Shown piece by piece: positions 5,298 to 63,464 of a stretch of 64,000 nt of DNA. The position numbers and the translations under genes were made by a program. This stretch comes from a virus. Lineage: Duplodnaviria > Caudoviricetes. Every line of letters starts with the position of its first letter. Position 1 is the first letter of the stretch. The stretch spans positions 32,001 through 96,000 of the IMG/VR virus record IMGVR_UViG_2871003000_000003; one strand, 5' to 3'. Under the pieces are notes generated by a model. That model was not told the DNA's origin, made no database searches, and was given only the letters and a program-made list of their open reading frames with translations.

Positions 5298-6223
5298 TAT
5301 TCACACCTCGCTTTATCACACTCATGAAATCTTAATAACATGTTATATTTTTCTTCGCCAAATATGTTTTTCCATTTATTTTTAGTTTTTTCCGTGTTCC
5401 AATTAAAAGGCATCATGTGATAATTAATTAAAAAACAACAATCTAACAAAAAAACATCGGTATTATATTCTTCAAATGGATTATACAATGTTGTTAAAAC
5501 ACAATACGATCCGACATTTTCATGTCCAAAATAATGAGCAATCCCATTTTCATCAATCGTCTGCGTGTACAATTTACCAAAATCATGTATTTTTGCACCA
5601 AGAAGAAAACCGCTTTTATATACATCATAAGGATGAGCCAAATCTGAAAACTTGTTATATGTAAAATCACAATGGTCTTCTAAATACATATTGTGGTGCG
5701 GATTTTTTTGATCAAATCCTGTCATTGATATCGTAACTGCATTTGGAAGGATTTTTCCAGCATATGTATATCCCACATCATGAATAACAATTTCACTAAA
5801 TCCTTCTTCTTTAAAAGGAATTTGAAATCTTCTTAACTGCTTTTCGAGTACATATTCTGGTACTGTATGTTCTCTATTCTTATTATCTTTAACACAATCT
5901 TTGTATTTCTTAGGTACAATATAACAAATCTTCTCAACATCCAATTTTTTCACGTGCTCAACAATCGCGCGTCGTGACTTTATCGTGATATTCGTTGCAT
6001 CTGCAATTACATTTTTATTCTTATTTAATGATTCTCTTATTCTCTTATTAAAAATATTAAACACTTTTTCATTATCAGATTGATTTTGGCATGATCCAAA
6101 CAATTCTTCTCTAATTGCATCTGAAGATACAATCTCTGCATTATATTTGACAGCTAAATCTTTTGCAATGCTGGACTTTCCACTTCCAGAAAGTCCACAC
6201 ATAATAAATAATTTGGGTTGCAT
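5297..6223 (-). CDS. polynucleotide kinase (AAA_33 P-loop) fused to HD phosphohydrolase
   Basis: GLSGSGKS Walker A, SSDAIR, DATN; C-terminal HH..HC, HDFGK, HENVG, YHM. Confidence 0.85.
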   Translation of the reverse strand: MQPKLFIMCGLSGSGKSSIAKDLAVKYNAEIVSSDAIREELFGSCQNQSDNEKVFNIFNKRIRESLNKNKNVIADATNITIKSRRAIVEHVKKLDVEKICYIVPKKYKDCVKDNKNREHTVPEYVLEKQLRRFQIPFKEEGFSEIVIHDVGYTYAGKILPNAVTISMTGFDQKNPHHNMYLEDHCDFTYNKFSDLAHPYDVYKSGFLLGAKIHDFGKLYTQTIDENGIAHYFGHENVGSYCVLTTLYNPFEEYNTDVFLLDCCFLINYHMMPFNWNTEKTKNKWKNIFGEEKYNMLLRFHECDKARCE

Positions 6224-29548: not shown

Positions 29549-29593
29549 AGTTTTATTCTCCTTTTTAATCTAATAATTCTTTATCGATAATCT

Positions 29594-29889
29594 GTTTCCA
29601 TCCTTATATTTGTATAAATTACATCTTTTTCTATTTTTTATAATGCAGCTTTCGATCGCATTTCAATCCTCATACTAATGTAAACTACATCTCCATTCCA
29701 TTCAGAAGTTCACAGGTGATATGCAATTTAAATCCTCATACTTATGTAAACTACATCATACAATGCCCCTGCTATGTTCTCATCTGTTTGCGATTTCAAT
29801 CCTCATACTTATGTAAACTACATCTTATTAAATCAGATGTTATTAAAACATACGGGTATTTCAATCCTCATACTTATGTAAACTACATC
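29594..29889 (-). CRISPR. CRISPR mini-array: 5 x 32-bp repeats (GATGTAGTTTACATAAGTATGAGGATTGAAAT), 4 spacers of 33-35 bp
   Basis: Repeats at 29858-29889, 29793-29824, 29726-29757 (1 mismatch), 29660-29691 (1 mismatch) and degenerate 29594-29625 (7 mismatches); unique spacers 33/35/34/34 bp; the ATTGAAAT 3' end and distal decay give minus orientation. Confidence 0.95.
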
Positions 29890-30096
29890 ATCAAAAATAC
29901 ACAAATATGACATATCTATTTTATGTAACTTACACAATTCTAAGGTTACAAAAGCGTTATCCGTTTTCGTATATGTAAATAAATGATTACTACTCACTGA
30001 TTTCTTTTATCTACTTTAGTGCGAATAAACCGTATAACTTATGTTCACTTCATATTCGCACATGGCGGCGTTGAACCTGCAACCATGTATATGTAT
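29890..30096 (-). promoter_or_regulatory. CRISPR leader with type I-C-like inverted-repeat motif
   Basis: AT-rich; minus-strand GTGCGAATA-TGAAGTGAACATAAGTTATACGGTT-TATTCGCAC at 30019-30061. Confidence 0.65.
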
Positions 30097-30396
30097 TTAA
30101 GCTATTTGCTTCTTATATTCTTTCTCTTTAGCCATATTCAAAATATTAATTGCAGCATTAATGTCTCTATCATGAATCGCTCCACATTCAGGACAAATCC
30201 AGCCTCTTATTTTTGTATCTTTTGTTTTTACGTTCACAAAACCACATTTACTGCATGTTTGTGTTGATTTTTTATATTGTCCAATTGCAACAACAGGTAC
30301 ACCATATTCTTCACCTTTTCTTTTTAATAAAGTAAGAATTTCTCCCATCGCCGCATCAGATAAATTATCATTTCTCACTCTTGTTTTTCTTGACAT
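30097..30396 (-). CDS. tnpB: TnpB/Cas12f-like nuclease, C-terminal part (Zn finger + RuvC-III)
   Basis: LSDAAMG, STQTCSKCG..WICPECG, HDRDINAAINI. Confidence 0.88.
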   Translation of the reverse strand: MSRKTRVRNDNLSDAAMGEILTLLKRKGEEYGVPVVAIGQYKKSTQTCSKCGFVNVKTKDTKIRGWICPECGAIHDRDINAAINILNMAKEKEYKKQIA

Positions 30397-31501
30397 ACAT
30401 ATCTTTAACCGACAAAGTTTCTATTCCAATAAAGTCTGATCTTTTTATAACTTCTAACACCATATTCTCCATATGATATTTTCTTTGTCGTGTTACCTTT
30501 CTTTCTAATTTTGCTTTTTTAACTTTTGTTTCTATGTATCTTTTAGAAGGCTTTAATTCAACATTTTCTTTTCTTAATTCACTTAACCTTTTCCTAAACT
30601 CAATATTGCTATACCCTTGCCTTCTGGATAATTGTCTATTTAACATCTCACGATGTTGACGAACACTTCCGTCTTTACCATTTTTGAATCTAGGATTATC
30701 ATATTTTGTTCCGTCTGATAAAGTCATCAAAGTTGAAATTCCAACATCAATTCCAATTTCTCTTTTCTCTTCTTCTACTTTCACAATCTTATAAATATCT
30801 TTCATACATAGCTGTAAAAAGTAATCACCACAATTATCTTTTTTTACAGTTGTTAATATTTGTTGTTTCTTATGTAAATTCACATATTCTTCAAAATTCA
30901 TCGTGCATGATGAATCAAACCAGATATTTTTTAGGCATCCTTTAATCCCCCTAATCTTTACCTTTCCGATTTTAGCTAAATTAAAATATGCTACATTTTT
31001 ATTCTCATCATTAAAGCTCATTTTTCTCAGAAATTCTTGATATGTATAACTTGTTCTCGGATGTTTCTTTGAATAATATGGAGGTTTACTGTTCTCAATC
31101 GGTCTTTTAACTCCCTTTCCGTTTGTTTTCTTATTAGAATTTTCTCCACTCACTTGAGCATCCAATCGCTTCGACAAATCACACAAGAAAACTCCATTCT
31201 CACCAGACAAAGCACCCGCTGGAATCAATTTAATGTCTTCTCTCCTACTTCTTAACACATCCAAATACTGTTTCTTTGCAATAGACTTTACATCCGGAAA
31301 ATGAACAGTTTGTCCTCCATTCTTTTTGTCTGGTCTTTCAATTGTATTAACTTTATTTTCAAACATATCATAAACAGCCATATTACATGCTTTATGTAAA
31401 GCTAAGATAATTCTATCTATTAATTCACTCTGTTCTTTATTTGGATACATTCTAAAATTGAAAGTATACACCGGTATTTTTATAACTTTTTCAACTAGCA
31501 T
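30368..31501 (-). CDS. tnpB: TnpB/Cas12f-like RNA-guided nuclease, N-terminal part (WED/REC, RuvC-I, RuvC-II); about 466 aa if the frameshift is repaired
   Basis: FRMYPNKEQ N-terminus, IGIDVG (RuvC-I D), LSDG..YDNP, RQLSRR, IGIETLSVKDM (RuvC-II E); AGGAGG RBS inside the RT 3' end. Confidence 0.88.
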   Translation of the reverse strand: MLVEKVIKIPVYTFNFRMYPNKEQSELIDRIILALHKACNMAVYDMFENKVNTIERPDKKNGGQTVHFPDVKSIAKKQYLDVLRSRREDIKLIPAGALSGENGVFLCDLSKRLDAQVSGENSNKKTNGKGVKRPIENSKPPYYSKKHPRTSYTYQEFLRKMSFNDENKNVAYFNLAKIGKVKIRGIKGCLKNIWFDSSCTMNFEEYVNLHKKQQILTTVKKDNCGDYFLQLCMKDIYKIVKVEEEKREIGIDVGISTLMTLSDGTKYDNPRFKNGKDGSVRQHREMLNRQLSRRQGYSNIEFRKRLSELRKENVELKPSKRYIETKVKKAKLERKVTRQRKYHMENMVLEVIKRSDFIGIETLSVKDMYVKKNKSEK

Positions 31502-32276
31502 TTAACCAGACCTCCTTTTGCGACATTTCATAATTTAGTGTGTTTACAAAATCTTCTATTGCACACAAACAATATTTTGCATATTGCTTTGATTCCACAA
31601 TTAAATAGAAATCATCCATGTATCTTCCATAATATTTGACACCCAACTCTCCAGTTATAAAATGATCAAAACCAGACAAATATAATAAAGCAAATACCTG
31701 ACTAACTTGATTTCCAAGAGGCAAGCCATTTCCGCTTGTGCTATCAATAAATTTTTCACATAACCAGTACGTATCTGGATTAGATATAAAATATGAAACA
31801 ATATCTTTCAGAATATTATGATCAATATTATAGAAAAATTTTTTAATATCACCTTTAATAATCCAACAATCATATCCGTATTTCTGATATGCTAAATACA
31901 TTTGATATTTCAGACAATCCAAACCAAACAATGTTCCTTTTCCTATTTGTCCGGCATAATTCGTATATATAAATTCATTACTTAAAATAGGAAGAAGCAC
32001 ATTATCACATAAACTGTGCTGCACAATTTTGTCTTTAAAACTTCCTGCTTCTATAATTCTCTCTTTCGGTTCATATACTTTAAATCTGTTATATCTATCT
32101 ACTTCATATTGCTTTGATTCTAAAAGTTTCTTAATTTGATAAATTCCATCAAGAGCAGATAATTCAAATTTAATTCTACTTTTCGTAAAACCTTTGCCAC
32201 TTTTTGAATCTCTGTATGCTTTATATAAATTTTCAAAATCAATAATCTTATCAAAAACTGTGCTATCTTTTATCAT
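31491..32276 (-). CDS. DGR reverse transcriptase, C-terminally truncated
   Basis: EPKER, DKIVQH, GKGT, KGDIKKFF, GLPLGNQVSQ (DGR-type GxxxSQ), RYMDD; ends about 40 aa after YMDD with no FLG/thumb. Confidence 0.92.
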   Translation of the reverse strand: MIKDSTVFDKIIDFENLYKAYRDSKSGKGFTKSRIKFELSALDGIYQIKKLLESKQYEVDRYNRFKVYEPKERIIEAGSFKDKIVQHSLCDNVLLPILSNEFIYTNYAGQIGKGTLFGLDCLKYQMYLAYQKYGYDCWIIKGDIKKFFYNIDHNILKDIVSYFISNPDTYWLCEKFIDSTSGNGLPLGNQVSQVFALLYLSGFDHFITGELGVKYYGRYMDDFYLIVESKQYAKYCLCAIEDFVNTLNYEMSQKEVWLNAS

Positions 32277-32395
32277 GATATATTTTACCTTTGTATTTAT
32301 CCTGTCTAGTAAAAGACAGGAAAGGTTGTTTGCTCTTTTGATATCGGGACTCTAATTTCAGCGTTTCTCTTACTTTATTTCGTCTTCCGACCCAG

Positions 32396-32477
32396 AACGG
32401 ACGAACTCCATAATCGTTCCAATTGCAATCGTTGTAGTTCACGTTACCATTACTGTTAACAATCTGAACATAGGAAG
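32396..32477 (-). ncRNA. DGR template repeat (TR)
   Basis: 82-bp AAC/AAT-rich segment between avd and RT; differs from two VRs almost only at its adenines. Confidence 0.95.
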
Positions 32478-32502
32478 TCATATAGCAAACAACCGTTAAG
32501 AA

Positions 32503-32856
32503 TCATCTTGTTTTATCTTTGTTTCTCCAGGCTATTGTCATATATTTAATATCACATATCTTCTTCTGCCAATGTTCAACTGTATCAGATCCTATAAGAT
32601 TTAGATTCATTGACAATTCAACATAACAAGATAATTTATCACATGAAGAAATAGATCTAGTTTGCAAATCTAATCTCTTCTGTTTTTCTGCATTTATTTG
32701 TATTCTATTTGCGCTCATCAGGAAATCATATATATTCATACATTCATTCTGAATTCTTTCTATAAGCGTTTTGTATTTTGCCGGATATCTCTTTTTATTC
32801 GCTGTCACGGAATATGTATATTGCATTAAGTCGATAGCTTTTGTAATAACTTCCAT
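32503..32856 (-). CDS. avd: DGR accessory variability determinant (Avd, four-helix bundle)
   Basis: Basic helical 117-aa protein (RYPAKYK..L.ERIQ..AN..KRL..Q..W...W) directly upstream of TR-RT; start MEVITK has a GGAG RBS. Confidence 0.85.
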   Translation of the reverse strand: MEVITKAIDLMQYTYSVTANKKRYPAKYKTLIERIQNECMNIYDFLMSANRIQINAEKQKRLDLQTRSISSCDKLSCYVELSMNLNLIGSDTVEHWQKKICDIKYMTIAWRNKDKTR

Positions 32857-32901
32857 ATAAATCACTCCAATCTTGCTGAGTTTTGCTCTTCGAATACTTA
32901 C

Positions 32902-32923
32902 GAACAACGCTTACGCATTGTTC
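32902..32923 (-). promoter_or_regulatory. hairpin downstream of VR1 (candidate DGR target-recognition element)
   Basis: GAACAATGC-GTAA-GCGTTGTTC, beginning 62 bp from the VR1 end. Confidence 0.5.
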
Positions 32924-32965
32924 TGTCTTCATCTCCACAAAACGTTATCGACAAGATAAACAGAT

Positions 32966-33730
32966 TTAAGATTCGGTGATAAAAAACGGACGAACCCCAC
33001 AAACGTCCCAAAGGCAACCGTCGCAGTTCACGTCACCATCACCGTCAACACGCCGAACATAGGAAGAATCTTTTCTTGATTTCGTCTGATTTGGAGTTGA
33101 CAGCCAGTGTGGATAATTGATTAGTGGAAGTTTTTCACCACATTTTCTGAATAAATCAAAAGTCGGAATAGACAATACATCATCTTTTACAACACCATAA
33201 TCATTAAATCCATCCATACTAAGCAAGTTATTTTCAACTGGAGTAATACTATTTCCATATTTACATTTAATGTCTTTTGCAAGCTTGCACTCTTTAAGAT
33301 ATTTTCTTACAGAAGATTCTGCGTAATTATTATTGCTGCCAAAACTCATCCTCGTAAGAACTCCATACATAAAATGATATATCTTTCCATCCATTCGAAT
33401 GTTTGTCCAATAATATCCAAATTCCTCTTTAAAGTGCTTGTTCATAAAATCTTTAACGGATTCTCTAAATTCATCTTCATATCTCTCTGGATCGTTACTA
33501 TACCATTCTGGTACAATATCCTGATCGACTTTATAAGTCCACTTTGAAATATCAGAAGTGATAACATATTTCTCTGGCGGAATTAATTCTGCTCTCACAA
33601 ATTTCTTAGAAGCATTAAATTCATTATCTTCTATATCCAATTTTTCAAGCAAACTTGAATGACTTTCATTCTCTAAGGGTGCAAGTTCCACCCTATTCTT
33701 AAAAATAATTCCACTTTTAAACTCACACAT
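32966..33730 (-). CDS. DGR target protein 1 (DUF6273 / C-type-lectin-fold-like)
   Basis: NNYAESSVRKYL, LLSMDG, WLSTP, C-terminal VR ending GVRPF. Confidence 0.88.
   Translation of the reverse strand: MCEFKSGIIFKNRVELAPLENESHSSLLEKLDIEDNEFNASKKFVRAELIPPEKYVITSDISKWTYKVDQDIVPEWYSNDPERYEDEFRESVKDFMNKHFKEEFGYYWTNIRMDGKIYHFMYGVLTRMSFGSNNNYAESSVRKYLKECKLAKDIKCKYGNSITPVENNLLSMDGFNDYGVVKDDVLSIPTFDLFRKCGEKLPLINYPHWLSTPNQTKSRKDSSYVRRVDGDGDVNCDGCLWDVCGVRPFFITES
32985..33066 (-). repeat. DGR variable repeat VR1
   Basis: 82-bp ungapped match to TR; 16 mismatches, 15 at TR adenines. Confidence 0.95.
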
Positions 33731-33753: not shown

Positions 33754-34344
33754 TTAGACAATTTCAATTTCTTCTCCAATCAGTTCTTCTAACTTTTCGC
33801 GCATCTCTTCTACGGTCATTTTCTTTAGTTTTTTTCGCTCCCAGATGAGTTCGAGGTTGTCATCATGCATGATACTGCTAATTTTTTCCATGCATTTAAT
33901 CTTATATACCCTAACTATTTCTAAACCGCTTGCCACATTTTTTAAGTTTTCGTTATAGTCTCCCAAATCCGAATATCCATCTTCGCCAATCAAAAAGCCG
34001 CCTATAACAAGTCTTTTCCCGAAATAGTTATCATTATATTCGACCACCATTCCGCTTTTTAAATCTGACTTTGTAAATTCTTTCTGCATGTAATCACTCC
34101 ATTCCAGGATCTCGTATCCTTCGCTATTGTAGTACCGATACGATGAGAACATTCCGAATCTTATATAGCACGTTTCTCCTTTGTACTCTTCATAATTTGT
34201 CTTTTCCATGTAGCTTTTACCTGTGCACCACTTCATCCCATGCTCATGCATTCTCTTGCAAAAGTCTATTGCTTCTTCCTCGGTCTTGCAATGCACCGCA
34301 ATCTTATTGTCTTTATTTTTAAATTCGTCCCAGTTAAATCTCAT
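33754..34344 (-). CDS. hypothetical phage protein
   Basis: IAVHCKTEEEA / FTKSDLKSGMVVE motifs common in Clostridia phages. Confidence 0.6.
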   Translation of the reverse strand: MRFNWDEFKNKDNKIAVHCKTEEEAIDFCKRMHEHGMKWCTGKSYMEKTNYEEYKGETCYIRFGMFSSYRYYNSEGYEILEWSDYMQKEFTKSDLKSGMVVEYNDNYFGKRLVIGGFLIGEDGYSDLGDYNENLKNVASGLEIVRVYKIKCMEKISSIMHDDNLELIWERKKLKKMTVEEMREKLEELIGEEIEIV

Positions 34345-34535: not shown

Positions 34536-35999
34536 TTATCCAGCAAGTTCATATTTATGTCTCAAGAATTCACCAATATCATTTACCATGTATGTATAAT
34601 TTTCTTTTTGATCTTTAATATATGTAGAATTTCTGTTAAAGAAACTTACCATCCACTCCGGAATTTCTAAATCTATGTTTGTTTCAAAGCTGTACGCAAC
34701 AACAGCAAGTAAAGAATTCATGTTTTCAGGTTCAAGAAGTTTCGATGAGTTATCAACCTCTACTGTCCAGTCATCTAACTGAATTTTATATAATTCGATG
34801 TCTTCATCAATCACATCTTCTTTAACATTTTCTTTGATAAATTCAAGAGCGTTCTGGTCTGAAGAAGCATTATCTATTACATTATTCTCTCCCACTTCGA
34901 CAAGACATTCTTCATCTTCTTTAATATGTAAATACTCTTTCATGAGAGCAGTTAAGATGTTAATTTTCTCTTTTAAAATAGCCTTACCTTTTGTATGACG
35001 ATCCTCATTTAATTTGTCAAATGTTACTCCATTTACATCTTTTTTATATAAAGACTTTTCAAATTCTTCTACAAAATCCTTAAACTTAATATCATCTAAT
35101 CCAAATTTAGCAAACTCTTTAAACACAGGGATCCAAACAATAACATTTTTTGGCACAAACACTTCTGTGAAATTATCTTTGCACACAGATTCAATCCTGC
35201 TAAAATATTCATTTACAGTATCAAAGTGTTCTTCCGTTGCGTTCTCATTTAGATATTTGCTCATGTTCTTTATTGCACTTTTCCAGTTATCAAAGAAAAA
35301 CGTTGTCATGACAGATTCACATACAAGTCTTTCTCTAATACCTTTCGATTGCTGCTTACCGGAACAAGACATACAATTTTTAAAGAATTTATTTTTCTCA
35401 GATATTGTCCTTATTTTTCTTGCATGTAAATCAATATAAGTAAATGCTTTCTGAGATGTATTCATTCCCAAATGATTGTTGTATCTTCTCACCAATTTAC
35501 TAATCTGTGACATCGTACAATGCTGATGTATTGTAATGTCAATCTGATAATCATCAAACATTTTTTTCAATTCTGGCGGTAACATTTCATATGTTTTTCT
35601 TCTCAAATCATATTCAACAGATTCCCAAATAACTTTTCCGTATTCATCTTTACAGATTTTATTATTTTCATCTTTCTTTTTTCTCTGATATTGGATAATC
35701 GGATCTTCTAAAGTAGCTGTAATTTTATAGTTTTCATGCTTAAATTTAACCAACGCAGAACTTCTTTGCATTCCATCAACAATGTATTGCTGCACAACGT
35801 CTTCGTCCAAATCTTCTTCTCCTAAGATAATTGGTGGAATATAATCATCAGTTAATACAGTTTTGATTAACTCATTCACCATTCCATTTTCCCAACAAAA
35901 CAGTCTTTGAACGTCCTGGTTATCACTGATATCCTCTTCTACTATTTCCTCCAGGTATGATTCCAGAGATAAAGTCTTTTTTCTGATTTTCTTTGCCAT
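34536..35999 (-). CDS. DUF262 (ParB/GmrSD N-terminal-like) domain protein
   Basis: VQR..W, IPPIIL, IVDGMQR, RYNN. Confidence 0.75.
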   Translation of the reverse strand: MAKKIRKKTLSLESYLEEIVEEDISDNQDVQRLFCWENGMVNELIKTVLTDDYIPPIILGEEDLDEDVVQQYIVDGMQRSSALVKFKHENYKITATLEDPIIQYQRKKKDENNKICKDEYGKVIWESVEYDLRRKTYEMLPPELKKMFDDYQIDITIHQHCTMSQISKLVRRYNNHLGMNTSQKAFTYIDLHARKIRTISEKNKFFKNCMSCSGKQQSKGIRERLVCESVMTTFFFDNWKSAIKNMSKYLNENATEEHFDTVNEYFSRIESVCKDNFTEVFVPKNVIVWIPVFKEFAKFGLDDIKFKDFVEEFEKSLYKKDVNGVTFDKLNEDRHTKGKAILKEKINILTALMKEYLHIKEDEECLVEVGENNVIDNASSDQNALEFIKENVKEDVIDEDIELYKIQLDDWTVEVDNSSKLLEPENMNSLLAVVAYSFETNIDLEIPEWMVSFFNRNSTYIKDQKENYTYMVNDIGEFLRHKYELAG

Positions 36000-62719: not shown

Positions 62720-63276
62720 AGTACTACTCTCCTATTCCTTTTGATATTTACATAGTAGCACAATACTATGAATTTTTATAGAAATTTTTAAATCGTTAAG
62801 AGAATTAAAGTATGAAACAAAGAAACCGTTCAAATATTTTTAATAATAAAGGGAGAAATGATATGAGCAAATTGTAAATAATGATTTAAGAAAATAAGGA
62901 TTTAATGAAGAAGCATAAAAGAAATTATAAAAAATTTTTCTATTTCAATTTAAATTGTATCTTTGCGTCAGCAAAGACTTTGCGAAGCAAAGTGAAACGG
63001 AGACACGAAGAAAGGGTCGCTTGCGGCTCTTTCTGAAGTGGATCCAACATTACCTAGATCTCTCTATATATAAGGAATTACGAATTTATATCAAAAAAAT
63101 TATTTATAAAGAGAGAATTATTAACTGGGGGAAGGAAGACCAAATTCATAAGTCTTACTACGCACCTTGTTCGCCAAGGCTCACAATCTGCTAGTGCGAC
63201 TAAATGAATTATGCTCTTTTTTGCACTTCCCCCAGACCCCCTTCGCGCACTATAAAATGGATAAAAAATTCAATTA

Positions 63277-63406
63277 AAATCTCTCTAAACCCTTATAAAC
63301 ACTGGGTTTTTGACGAAAAACATCCTTTAAAGTCTCCCTATATTATATATATATTAGGGAGAAATGAAAGGATGCGAAATCTCTCTAAACCCTTATAAAC
63401 ACTGGG
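63277..63406 (+). repeat. two 30-bp direct repeats 100 bp apart flanking an AT-rich palindrome (iteron-like)
   Basis: AAATCTCTCTAAACCCTTATAAACACTGGG at 63277 and 63377; TCTCCCTA-(AT-rich)-TAGGGAGA at 63333-63362. Confidence 0.75.
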
Positions 63407-63464
63407 AAAATTGGCATTTTAGGTGTGCAAAAAACGATAAAAAACTAATTTAAGGAGAAAACAC

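Follow-up and report, generated by a model that had tools for sequence, protein, structure and literature searches.

The subject of this study is a 1,957-bp cassette that carries a gene pair for a putative RNA-guided nuclease and a short CRISPR array. It lies in a 64,000-nt stretch of viral DNA (positions 32,001 to 96,000 of the IMG/VR record IMGVR_UViG_2871003000_000003), which we refer to as the window. The source record is a 165,772-bp "provirus" with phage-type genes for an RNA ligase, a methyltransferase, an integrase and a DNA polymerase. Taking all lines of evidence together, we hold with high confidence that the cassette is a self-contained system of the TranC type (transposon-CRISPR intermediate), TnpB-derived and type V-like, on a ~165-kb phage or prophage of gut Clostridia. 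It would consist of an RNA-guided RuvC nuclease, a scaffold/leader of ~200 nt with an anti-repeat resembling those in trans-activating CRISPR RNAs (tracrRNAs), and an array of five repeats, with no adaptation genes. Systems of the TranC kind are already known; less ordinary are the conserved division of the effector between two open reading frames (ORFs) and the mimicry of type I-C CRISPR arrays. All features of the locus (29594-33730 of the window) lie on the minus strand, those of the cassette being as follows.

29567..31523, minus strand: TranC-type cassette, comprising ribosome-binding site, two-ORF effector, scaffold/leader and array; ends set by the breakpoints against viral contigs L008-L011.
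30368..31501, minus strand: effector ORF1, 377 amino acids, PF01385, with the WED/REC part, RuvC-I (GIDVG) and RuvC-II (IETL).
30097..30396, minus strand: effector ORF2, 99 amino acids, in the +1 frame with its own ATG, PF07282 (E 9e-21), with the zinc-finger TNB domain and RuvC-III (DRDINAA).
30063..30085, minus strand: scaffold helix 1, TGGTTGCAGGTTCAACGCCGCCA, directly 3′ of the ORF2 stop; 7 pairs, with 98% of cells paired across 12 loci.
30018..30062, minus strand: helix 2, the inverted repeat GTGCGAAT..ATTCGCAC, from the consensus structure and the comparison with type I-C leaders.
29925..29945, minus strand: anti-repeat CCTTAGAATTGTGTAAGTTAC, which pairs with repeat positions 4-24.
29594..29889, minus strand: CRISPR mini-array of five 32-nt repeats and four spacers, the last repeat degenerate.

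The effector resembles LaTranC, which is reportedly the best-studied TranC, comes from a Lachnospiraceae bacterium, and is said to have been described by Jin et al. in Cell in 2025 with PDB structures 9jfo, 9jfp and 9jfq. LaTranC was the best PDB sequence match of ORF1 (E 4e-39), of ORF2 (E 6e-22, over LaTranC residues 393-474) and of P0018 (E 1.9e-64), a fused relative of 457 amino acids that is 62% identical to ORF1. The AlphaFold2 model of P0018, with a pLDDT confidence score of 89 and a predicted template-modelling (pTM) score of 0.77, found its best fold match in LaTranC (9jfq; template-modelling (TM) scores 0.82/0.79), followed by the ISDra2 TnpB (0.58/0.71). P0018 scored 198 bits on the NCBIfam model guided_TnpB, and it remained far below the NCBIfam cut-offs for IS200_TnpB (171 vs 425 bits), Cas12f2 (34 vs 450) and C2c8 (81 vs 350). 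We conclude from the sequence matches and the modelled fold that the effector is a LaTranC homologue and that the locus is one of the TranC systems, a kind first published in 2025. An earlier, sequence-only reading of this DNA had noted all three RuvC motifs (GIDVG, IETL and DRDINAA), which are indeed present, and had proposed, as one of two options, a CRISPR-associated TnpB, which is supported; its suggestion of an independently evolved, undescribed lineage is displaced by the homology to LaTranC.

TranC systems are presented as TnpB descendants whose guide RNA is split into a tracrRNA and CRISPR RNAs (crRNAs), and as having short arrays and no cas accessory genes, with some of them phage-borne (bioRxiv 10.1101/2025.09.28.678669; PMC13565253; bioRxiv 10.64898/2026.03.27.714800). 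The cassette has the same organization: a TnpB-like RuvC effector homologous to a characterised TranC, an array beside it without cas1/cas2, and a guide divided between an anti-repeat scaffold and crRNA repeats. We found no match to Cas1 or Cas2 and no Y1 TnpA anywhere in the 165-kb record, which extends to the whole record the absence of cas1/cas2 and tnpA previously noted around the nuclease. The record holds a single TnpB-like gene and no left end of an insertion sequence (IS) was recognisable at the cassette, so that neither TnpA or recognisable ends nor multiple copies, as in an IS200/IS605 mobile unit, were seen. A scan for promoters and terminators returned fewer sites than it did in shuffled controls.

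That the array belongs to the nuclease is indicated by its position and by covariation. The five repeats (29858-29889, 29793-29824, 29726-29757, 29660-29691 and 29594-29625) alternate with spacers of 33-35 nt (29825-29857, 29758-29792, 29692-29725 and 29626-29659), and the first repeat begins 207 nt past the ORF2 stop, bearing out the earlier description of a leader followed by five repeats. We compared the contexts of homologues of 98% to 43% identity (L088-L092, L190-L206, L216 and L217), which are on other phage contigs and, in the case of L190, in a prophage of Blautia caecimuris. Where enough intact sequence is available downstream, ATGGTTGCAGGTTCAACGCCGCC, GTGCGAAT..ATTCGCAC, AAAGTAGATAAAAGAAAT and GCTTTTGTAACC come after the gene in this order. 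After the scaffold, every examined lineage with an intact downstream region, to 43% identity, has an array of 2-6 repeats that are 32-33 nt long and end in GGATTGAAAT. Covariation was assessed in an alignment of 12 scaffold regions, with 500 shuffles and slid partner columns as controls. Pairing holds in 94% of the cells of the consensus structure, compensatory changes are seen at 16 of its 33 pairs, and none of the 500 shuffles equalled the observed covariation. The anti-repeat stands ~45 nt upstream of the first repeat, and the helices that it forms with the repeat (helices 3-5) comprise 17 pairs, 11 of them compensatory, with 90-96% of cells paired compared with 30-46% after sliding. The covariation of anti-repeat and repeat speaks against an array that is no more than a chance neighbour of the nuclease; the anti-repeat looks as that of a tracrRNA should, which points to the array being the nuclease's own. 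The crRNAs would pair with the anti-repeat of a tracrRNA whose ends are predicted, and would guide the nuclease to DNA with a 5′-TTC protospacer adjacent motif (PAM), which it would presumably cleave.

The scaffold had no match in Rfam, and an exact search for the repeat in genome contigs returned none either; the 14-nt repeat end alone was found mostly in 36-37-nt repeat families of other phyla. Some related loci have rearranged this region. L195 carries a second full scaffold and array module (5760-6132), without an effector gene and with a different repeat variant, after its first repeat-spacer unit, and L194 and L196 have chimeric arrays that mix the two repeat types, as a deletion between tandem modules would produce. 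In L202 (4828-4860) and L203 (4827-4860), the last array repeat abuts a 3′ remnant of a DUF8224 gene that is intact in L190, so that a deletion must have taken the trailer repeat together with most of the DUF8224 gene.

Differences between closely related arrays indicate that the array turns over at its leader end and that the system is in use. The scaffold and array of a sister contig, L006, are identical to those of the window save for the leader-proximal spacer, which is wholly different, and both L089/L090 and L199/L200 have trailer-side spacers in common and leader-side spacers that differ. The sequence-only reading had proposed matching the spacers to phages, and this succeeded for spacers 1, 2 and 3 of the window. 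Together with the spacer unique to L006, making four of the five distinct spacers, they find targets, with 0-3 mismatches, in a single family of viral contigs 20-41 kb long and in metagenome contigs related to it (L207-L212, L214, L215, L231 and L232). The protospacers are inside genes whose function is unknown and which have a helicase gene nearby, and each is preceded by 5′-TTC, save in one contig with TTT; the chance expectation of four TTC motifs is about (1/64)^4. The TTT site and the sites with 1-3 mismatches could be escape variants. LaTranC has been reported to be a programmable nuclease with a 5′-TTC PAM (bioRxiv 10.1101/2025.09.28.678669), and the protospacers found here agree with it in both PAM side and sequence. 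For the DNA cleavage guided by both crRNA and right-end RNA that marks TranC systems, the four natural protospacers with this PAM would be indirect support. As the spacers have the same sense as the target genes, the target would be DNA and not mRNA.

With spacers aimed at another viral family, the array would act in competition between phages, by superinfection exclusion, and phage-against-phage immunity seems the most economical reading of these matches. Spacer 4, for which no match was found, counts against it. None of the spacers has a target in the phage's own record, and the INPHARED phage collection contained neither a protospacer of the window array nor a relative of the target contigs. 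The phage and the targeted family also have a stretch of 518 bp in common (window 62918-63434), 97-99% identical in L207, L210, L212, L214 and L215; it contains no convincing ORF and no tRNA, and has 30-bp repeats 100 bp apart. Phage and target thus either exchange DNA or have a regulatory or origin-like element in common.

The effector is spread over two overlapping ORFs, which the sequence-only reading had taken for a broken gene to be repaired into a protein of ~466 amino acids. This does not fit the relatives, which keep the layout down to 47% identity. An ORF1 of ~375 amino acids followed by an ORF2 of ~97 was present in every inspected member of one well-supported clade, and 37 of the 45 clade members in the protein search were ORF1-length proteins without the TNB domain, while the 27 proteins of the sister clade are fused. 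Sequencing error was ruled out as the cause because many assemblies, whose proteins diverge by up to 53%, keep the split; an alternative genetic code was ruled out because ORF2 lies in a different frame and ORF1 stops at TGA, TAA or TAG depending on the lineage. In the P0018 model, the split point corresponds to residues 361-380, the second-lowest-confidence stretch (pLDDT 56-66; only the 121-128 loop is lower), in a loop predicted to lie between the RuvC-II strand and the next helix. A literature search for a naturally split TnpB gave nothing relevant.

We consider that the effector probably consists of two translationally coupled subunits, and prefer this over recoding and over a dead gene. 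The two ORFs would yield two polypeptides that assemble, divided at a flexible loop that separates RuvC-II from the zinc-finger/RuvC-III module. It is unlikely that ORF1 and ORF2 are instead decoded as one polypeptide, whether through slippage in transcription or through programmed +1/-1 frameshifting. In favour of this, shifting by +1 at the stop of ORF1 (AAA TGA) would produce a linker one residue shorter than in fused relatives, and the tree has fused and split forms as close sisters, the fused P0018 and P0036 adjoining split ones; this placement tells against two subunits insofar as it fits one-chain recoding as well as it fits tolerance of both states. Against a single chain, the lineages would need opposite shifts: those of the window, L194 and L205 have ORF2 in the +1 frame, and those of L190 and L202 have it in the -1 frame, with stop and start overlapping as ATGA. 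Nor do the lineages have a slippery site in common. Moreover, most ORF2s have the conserved start Met-Ser-Arg/Lys..Asn-Leu-Ser-Asp (four of five lineages, L205 deviating), and several have an AAGGAG-like or AAAGGA-like site upstream. It is improbable that the nuclease is dead, whether as a frameshifted pseudogene or with ORF1 alone serving as a nuclease-free, TldR-like DNA binder; in either case the repair proposed in the sequence-only reading would rebuild a gene that has ceased to work. ORF1 by itself does lack the zinc finger and RuvC-III, and a related lineage, P0010, has truly lost its catalytic residues; yet ORF2 retains both CxxC pairs and HDRDINAA, is free of stop codons and indels in at least nine diverged split loci, and has a ratio of nonsynonymous to synonymous substitution rates (dN/dS) of 0.03, compared with 0.07 for ORF1, at a dS of ~0.8, which means strong purifying selection on both.

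P0010 itself (L199:3001-4880, also in L200 and L201) is a fused effector of 448 amino acids that is seemingly nuclease-dead, with GIDVG changed to GVRIG, HDRD to HDKA, and the zinc finger deleted. The contigs L199-L201 still carry arrays of 3-6 repeats whose spacers vary between contigs, and they have lost the leader inverted repeat. P0010 may be a DNA-binding derivative of the Cas12m or TldR sort.

How spacers might enter an array without adaptation genes is suggested by its likeness to type I-C arrays, which we compared across a sample of 210 Clostridia genomes. These genomes contain arrays of 32-nt repeats ending in GTGGATTGAAAC, e.g., GTCGCTCCCCGTGCGGGAGCGTGGATTGAAAC, 3-5 kb from Cas8c, and in their leaders the inverted repeat GCGAAY-N22-36-RTTCGC stands as far from the first repeat as helix 2 does in the cassette. 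In 16 of the 210 genomes the combined pattern is found, exactly once in each, and its reversed control is found in none. The cassette thus has the 32-nt repeat ending in GGATTGAAAY and the fixed-distance leader inverted repeat of type I-C, and lacks the G+C-rich repeat hairpin; the 5′ part of its repeat is A+T-rich and pairs with the anti-repeat. As to adjacent cas genes, cas1 and cas2 are absent from the record, where cas3, cas5, cas7 and cas8c were not searched for. The type I-C PAM is TTC (PMC8406640; bioRxiv 10.1101/137067). Because the leader motif, the repeat length and 3′ end, the spacer length and the PAM all resemble those of type I-C, we surmise that the Cas1-Cas2-Cas4 complex of a host type I-C system probably inserts the new spacers.

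Two points weigh against this surmise. L199-L201, having lost the leader inverted repeat, still differ in their spacers, and the motif may be dispensable for spacer gain; and helix 2 could belong to the tracrRNA as an RNA stem instead of being a leader signal at the DNA level. The same likeness might also mean that this is an orphan type I-C array used with the Cascade-Cas3 of the host, the TnpB-like gene beside it being no more than the remnant of an IS that has an omega RNA of its own. The lengths of repeat and spacer, the last 10 nt of the repeat, the inverted repeat in the leader and the TTC PAM would all fit, but we regard this as quite improbable, given that over its 5′ two-thirds the repeat lacks a G+C-rich hairpin and covaries with the anti-repeat next to the nuclease gene, that the order of gene, scaffold and array is kept at 43-100% identity in different genomic contexts, and that the homologue LaTranC is reported to be a programmable nuclease with a TTC PAM. 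The array may also be used by both effectors, the TnpB-like nuclease and the host Cascade. Returning to a host-supplied TranC array, we put forward a broader view only tentatively, at somewhat less than an even chance: that this clade of phage TranC would combine a natural two-subunit nuclease (a WED/REC/RuvC-I-II subunit and a zinc-finger/RuvC-III subunit of ~97 amino acids) made by translational coupling with cas-less arrays that host type I-C Cas1-Cas2-Cas4 loads through mimicry of leader and repeat end, the TTC PAM of the effector being matched to the one which those host proteins select.

Directly upstream of the cassette lie the parts of a diversity-generating retroelement (DGR), with its variable region (VR), template repeat (TR) and reverse transcriptase (RT).

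32966..33730, minus strand: DGR target gene, an ORF of 254 amino acids with the VR at its end.
32985..33066, minus strand: VR, from the TR/VR pair; its sequence varies among relatives.
32503..32907, minus strand: avd, 134 amino acids, PHROG 3206 "Avd protein of DGR" (E 5e-18).
32396..32477, minus strand: TR, 80% identical to the VR, with adenine-specific mismatches.
31491..32276, minus strand: truncated DGR RT ORF, 261 amino acids, with an RVT_1 match.

The sequence-only reading had placed target, avd, TR and RT correctly, in a conjectured single operon; the RT needs correction, being cut at amino acid 254 of 345. Only the first 254 residues of the ORF, to about 31524, derive from the RT. In relatives L008-L012 the RT is 345 amino acids long, and in L008-L011 it runs on as ...DFVNTLN-LELNGKTQIIPF...; in the window the break comes directly after codon 254, and junction alignment showed that the final 7 codons of the ORF are cassette sequence. 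The 11-bp overlap of the RT ORF with the start of the nuclease gene is real; the ribosome-binding site AAAGGAGG and the nuclease ATG are incoming cassette DNA, and the same alignment puts the cassette start 22 nt upstream of the ORF1 ATG. The truncated RT, the only one in the record, lacks motifs 6-7, the thumb and the C-terminal 91 residues, and so falls short of the palm motifs 1-7 and thumb of a full-length enzyme, whereas Avd and a TR/VR pair with adenine-specific changes, as in a functional DGR, are still there. Since adenines of the TR account for 15 of the 16 positions at which TR and VR differ, the DGR must have worked until recently, and we conclude from its sequence that it has recently been disabled and is not the partner of the nuclease.

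Comparison with relatives indicates that the adjacency of DGR and nuclease is an accident of an insertion that replaced the 3′ third of the RT gene and inactivated it. Viral contigs L008-L011 are 95-99% identical to the window on both flanks, and there the 345-amino-acid RT is followed by a radical-SAM gene of 317 amino acids. The cassette, unrelated to the DNA at the same place in these relatives, stands in place of RT codons 255-345 and the radical-SAM gene, with breakpoints at window positions 31524 and 29566. The nuclease is less a newcomer that took over the DGR transcription unit, as had been suggested, than one that replaced the 3′ end of the RT and the next gene. The left edge of the cassette recurs in L088 under another upstream context, and L088, L091 and L092 all carry the cassette behind the same DGR target gene, with avd, TR and RT gone. 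A 21-nt RT remnant considered in L088 was rejected by junction alignment.

The sequence-only reading had also raised the possibility of a coupled system, in which the RT/Avd machinery and the RNA-guided nuclease cooperate in cDNA-linked handling of spacers or guides or in nuclease-assisted retrohoming, and had itself said that arrayed nucleases never found beside a DGR RT would speak against it. We compared the 80 best RT relatives and 25 homologous nuclease loci fetched from elsewhere. Among the former, 77 are 345-359 amino acids long and 79 have no nuclease; a truncated RT adjoining the nuclease was found elsewhere only in the sister contig (L006/L007), which is ~97% identical, and this is the only place in which the synteny of RT, nuclease and array is kept. 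An RT was present at the sister locus L006 and at none of the other 24 nuclease-array loci; judged by the condition that the sequence-only reading had set itself, coupling is refuted. Coupling would be in keeping with the common orientation, the adjacency and 11-bp overlap, and the recurrence of the layout in one sister contig, but with the sole RT of the record cut short, the adjacency limited to the window and its close sister, nearly all RT relatives lacking the nuclease, and the cassette persisting in L088, L091 and L092 after the loss of avd, TR and RT, we find it barely credible.

Other genes around the insertion site were also noted. The radical-SAM-like gene, with a CNASCPFC motif, lies directly 3′ of the intact RT in L009 (7148-8101) and also in L008, L010 and L011, and is missing from L012 as well as from the window, which has the cassette instead. 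In L089 and L090 (4636-5823 in each), an unrelated, canonical TnpB gene of 395 amino acids stands between the DGR target and the TranC cassette, so that TnpB-family genes have entered this site twice. Just upstream of the DGR target in the window is a gene of 196 amino acids (33754-34344) with 77-86% nucleotide similarity to phages of Ruminococcus (Mediterraneibacter) gnavus; it is the only part of the region with such similarity to sequenced gnavus phages, and gives a weak hint as to host range. Beyond it, two genes upstream of the target, lies a 487-amino-acid protein (34536-35999) with a sub-threshold match to the N-terminal domain of the GmrSD restriction endonuclease (28 bits, cut-off 33.2).

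The targets, PAM and spacer turnover make this a natural TranC locus for which, as is rare with such systems, the sequence itself gives direct evidence of use. Should the two polypeptides indeed assemble, split miniature editors would have a precedent in nature, and the dependence of nuclease activity on a small subunit would be a possible point of control. The I-C-like leader, repeat end and PAM offer a testable answer to the question of how TranC arrays gain spacers without cas1/cas2, and the likeness suggests a route by which, at the origin of type V-like systems, a TnpB could have taken over an array of its host.

Set against known systems, the DGR has the target gene with VR, avd, TR, RT and adenine-specific TR/VR differences of a functional one, and differs in an RT shortened by its C-terminal 91 residues. 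The effector shares PF01385 and PF07282 with the ISDra2 TnpB of IS200/IS605 elements, which works with an omega or right-end RNA (reRNA) (PDB 8exa, 8h1j), as well as a guide scaffold from the 3′ end of the gene and a 5′ target motif of the transposon-adjacent motif (TAM)/PAM type; unlike an IS200/IS605 TnpB, it belongs to a single-copy cassette without TnpA or left end, and has a repeat-spacer array where the transposon has one guide, determined by the DNA that flanks it. With Clostridia type I-C arrays the array has in common the 32-nt repeats ending in GGATTGAAAY, spacers of 33-36 nt, the TTC PAM and, ~170/135 nt ahead of the first repeat, the inverted repeat GCGAAY..RTTCGC in the leader, whereas here there is no cas1/cas2 in the record, and the 5′ part of the repeat pairs with an anti-repeat and forms no G+C-rich hairpin. 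Like phage mini-CRISPR arrays and the compact type V systems of phages implicated in inter-viral conflict (Cas12j/CasPhi, Cas-lambda and CauTranC9), the system combines a phage-encoded array and anti-phage spacers with the absence of adaptation genes; its effector is of another family and is split. The closest likeness is to TranC and LaTranC, in the TnpB-sized RuvC effector (31% identity and a TM score of 0.82 for the fused clade member), the tracr-like scaffold with anti-repeat, the short array of 32-33-nt repeats without cas accessory genes, the 5′-TTC PAM, and the occurrence in Clostridia-type gut elements and phages. Neither a two-ORF effector nor an I-C-like leader was found in the literature on TranC that was searched, which did not cover the primary description (Cell 2025). 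It is in these two features that the cassette differs from LaTranC: its effector is encoded in two overlapping ORFs, an arrangement conserved across the clade, and its leader and repeat end resemble those of type I-C arrays.

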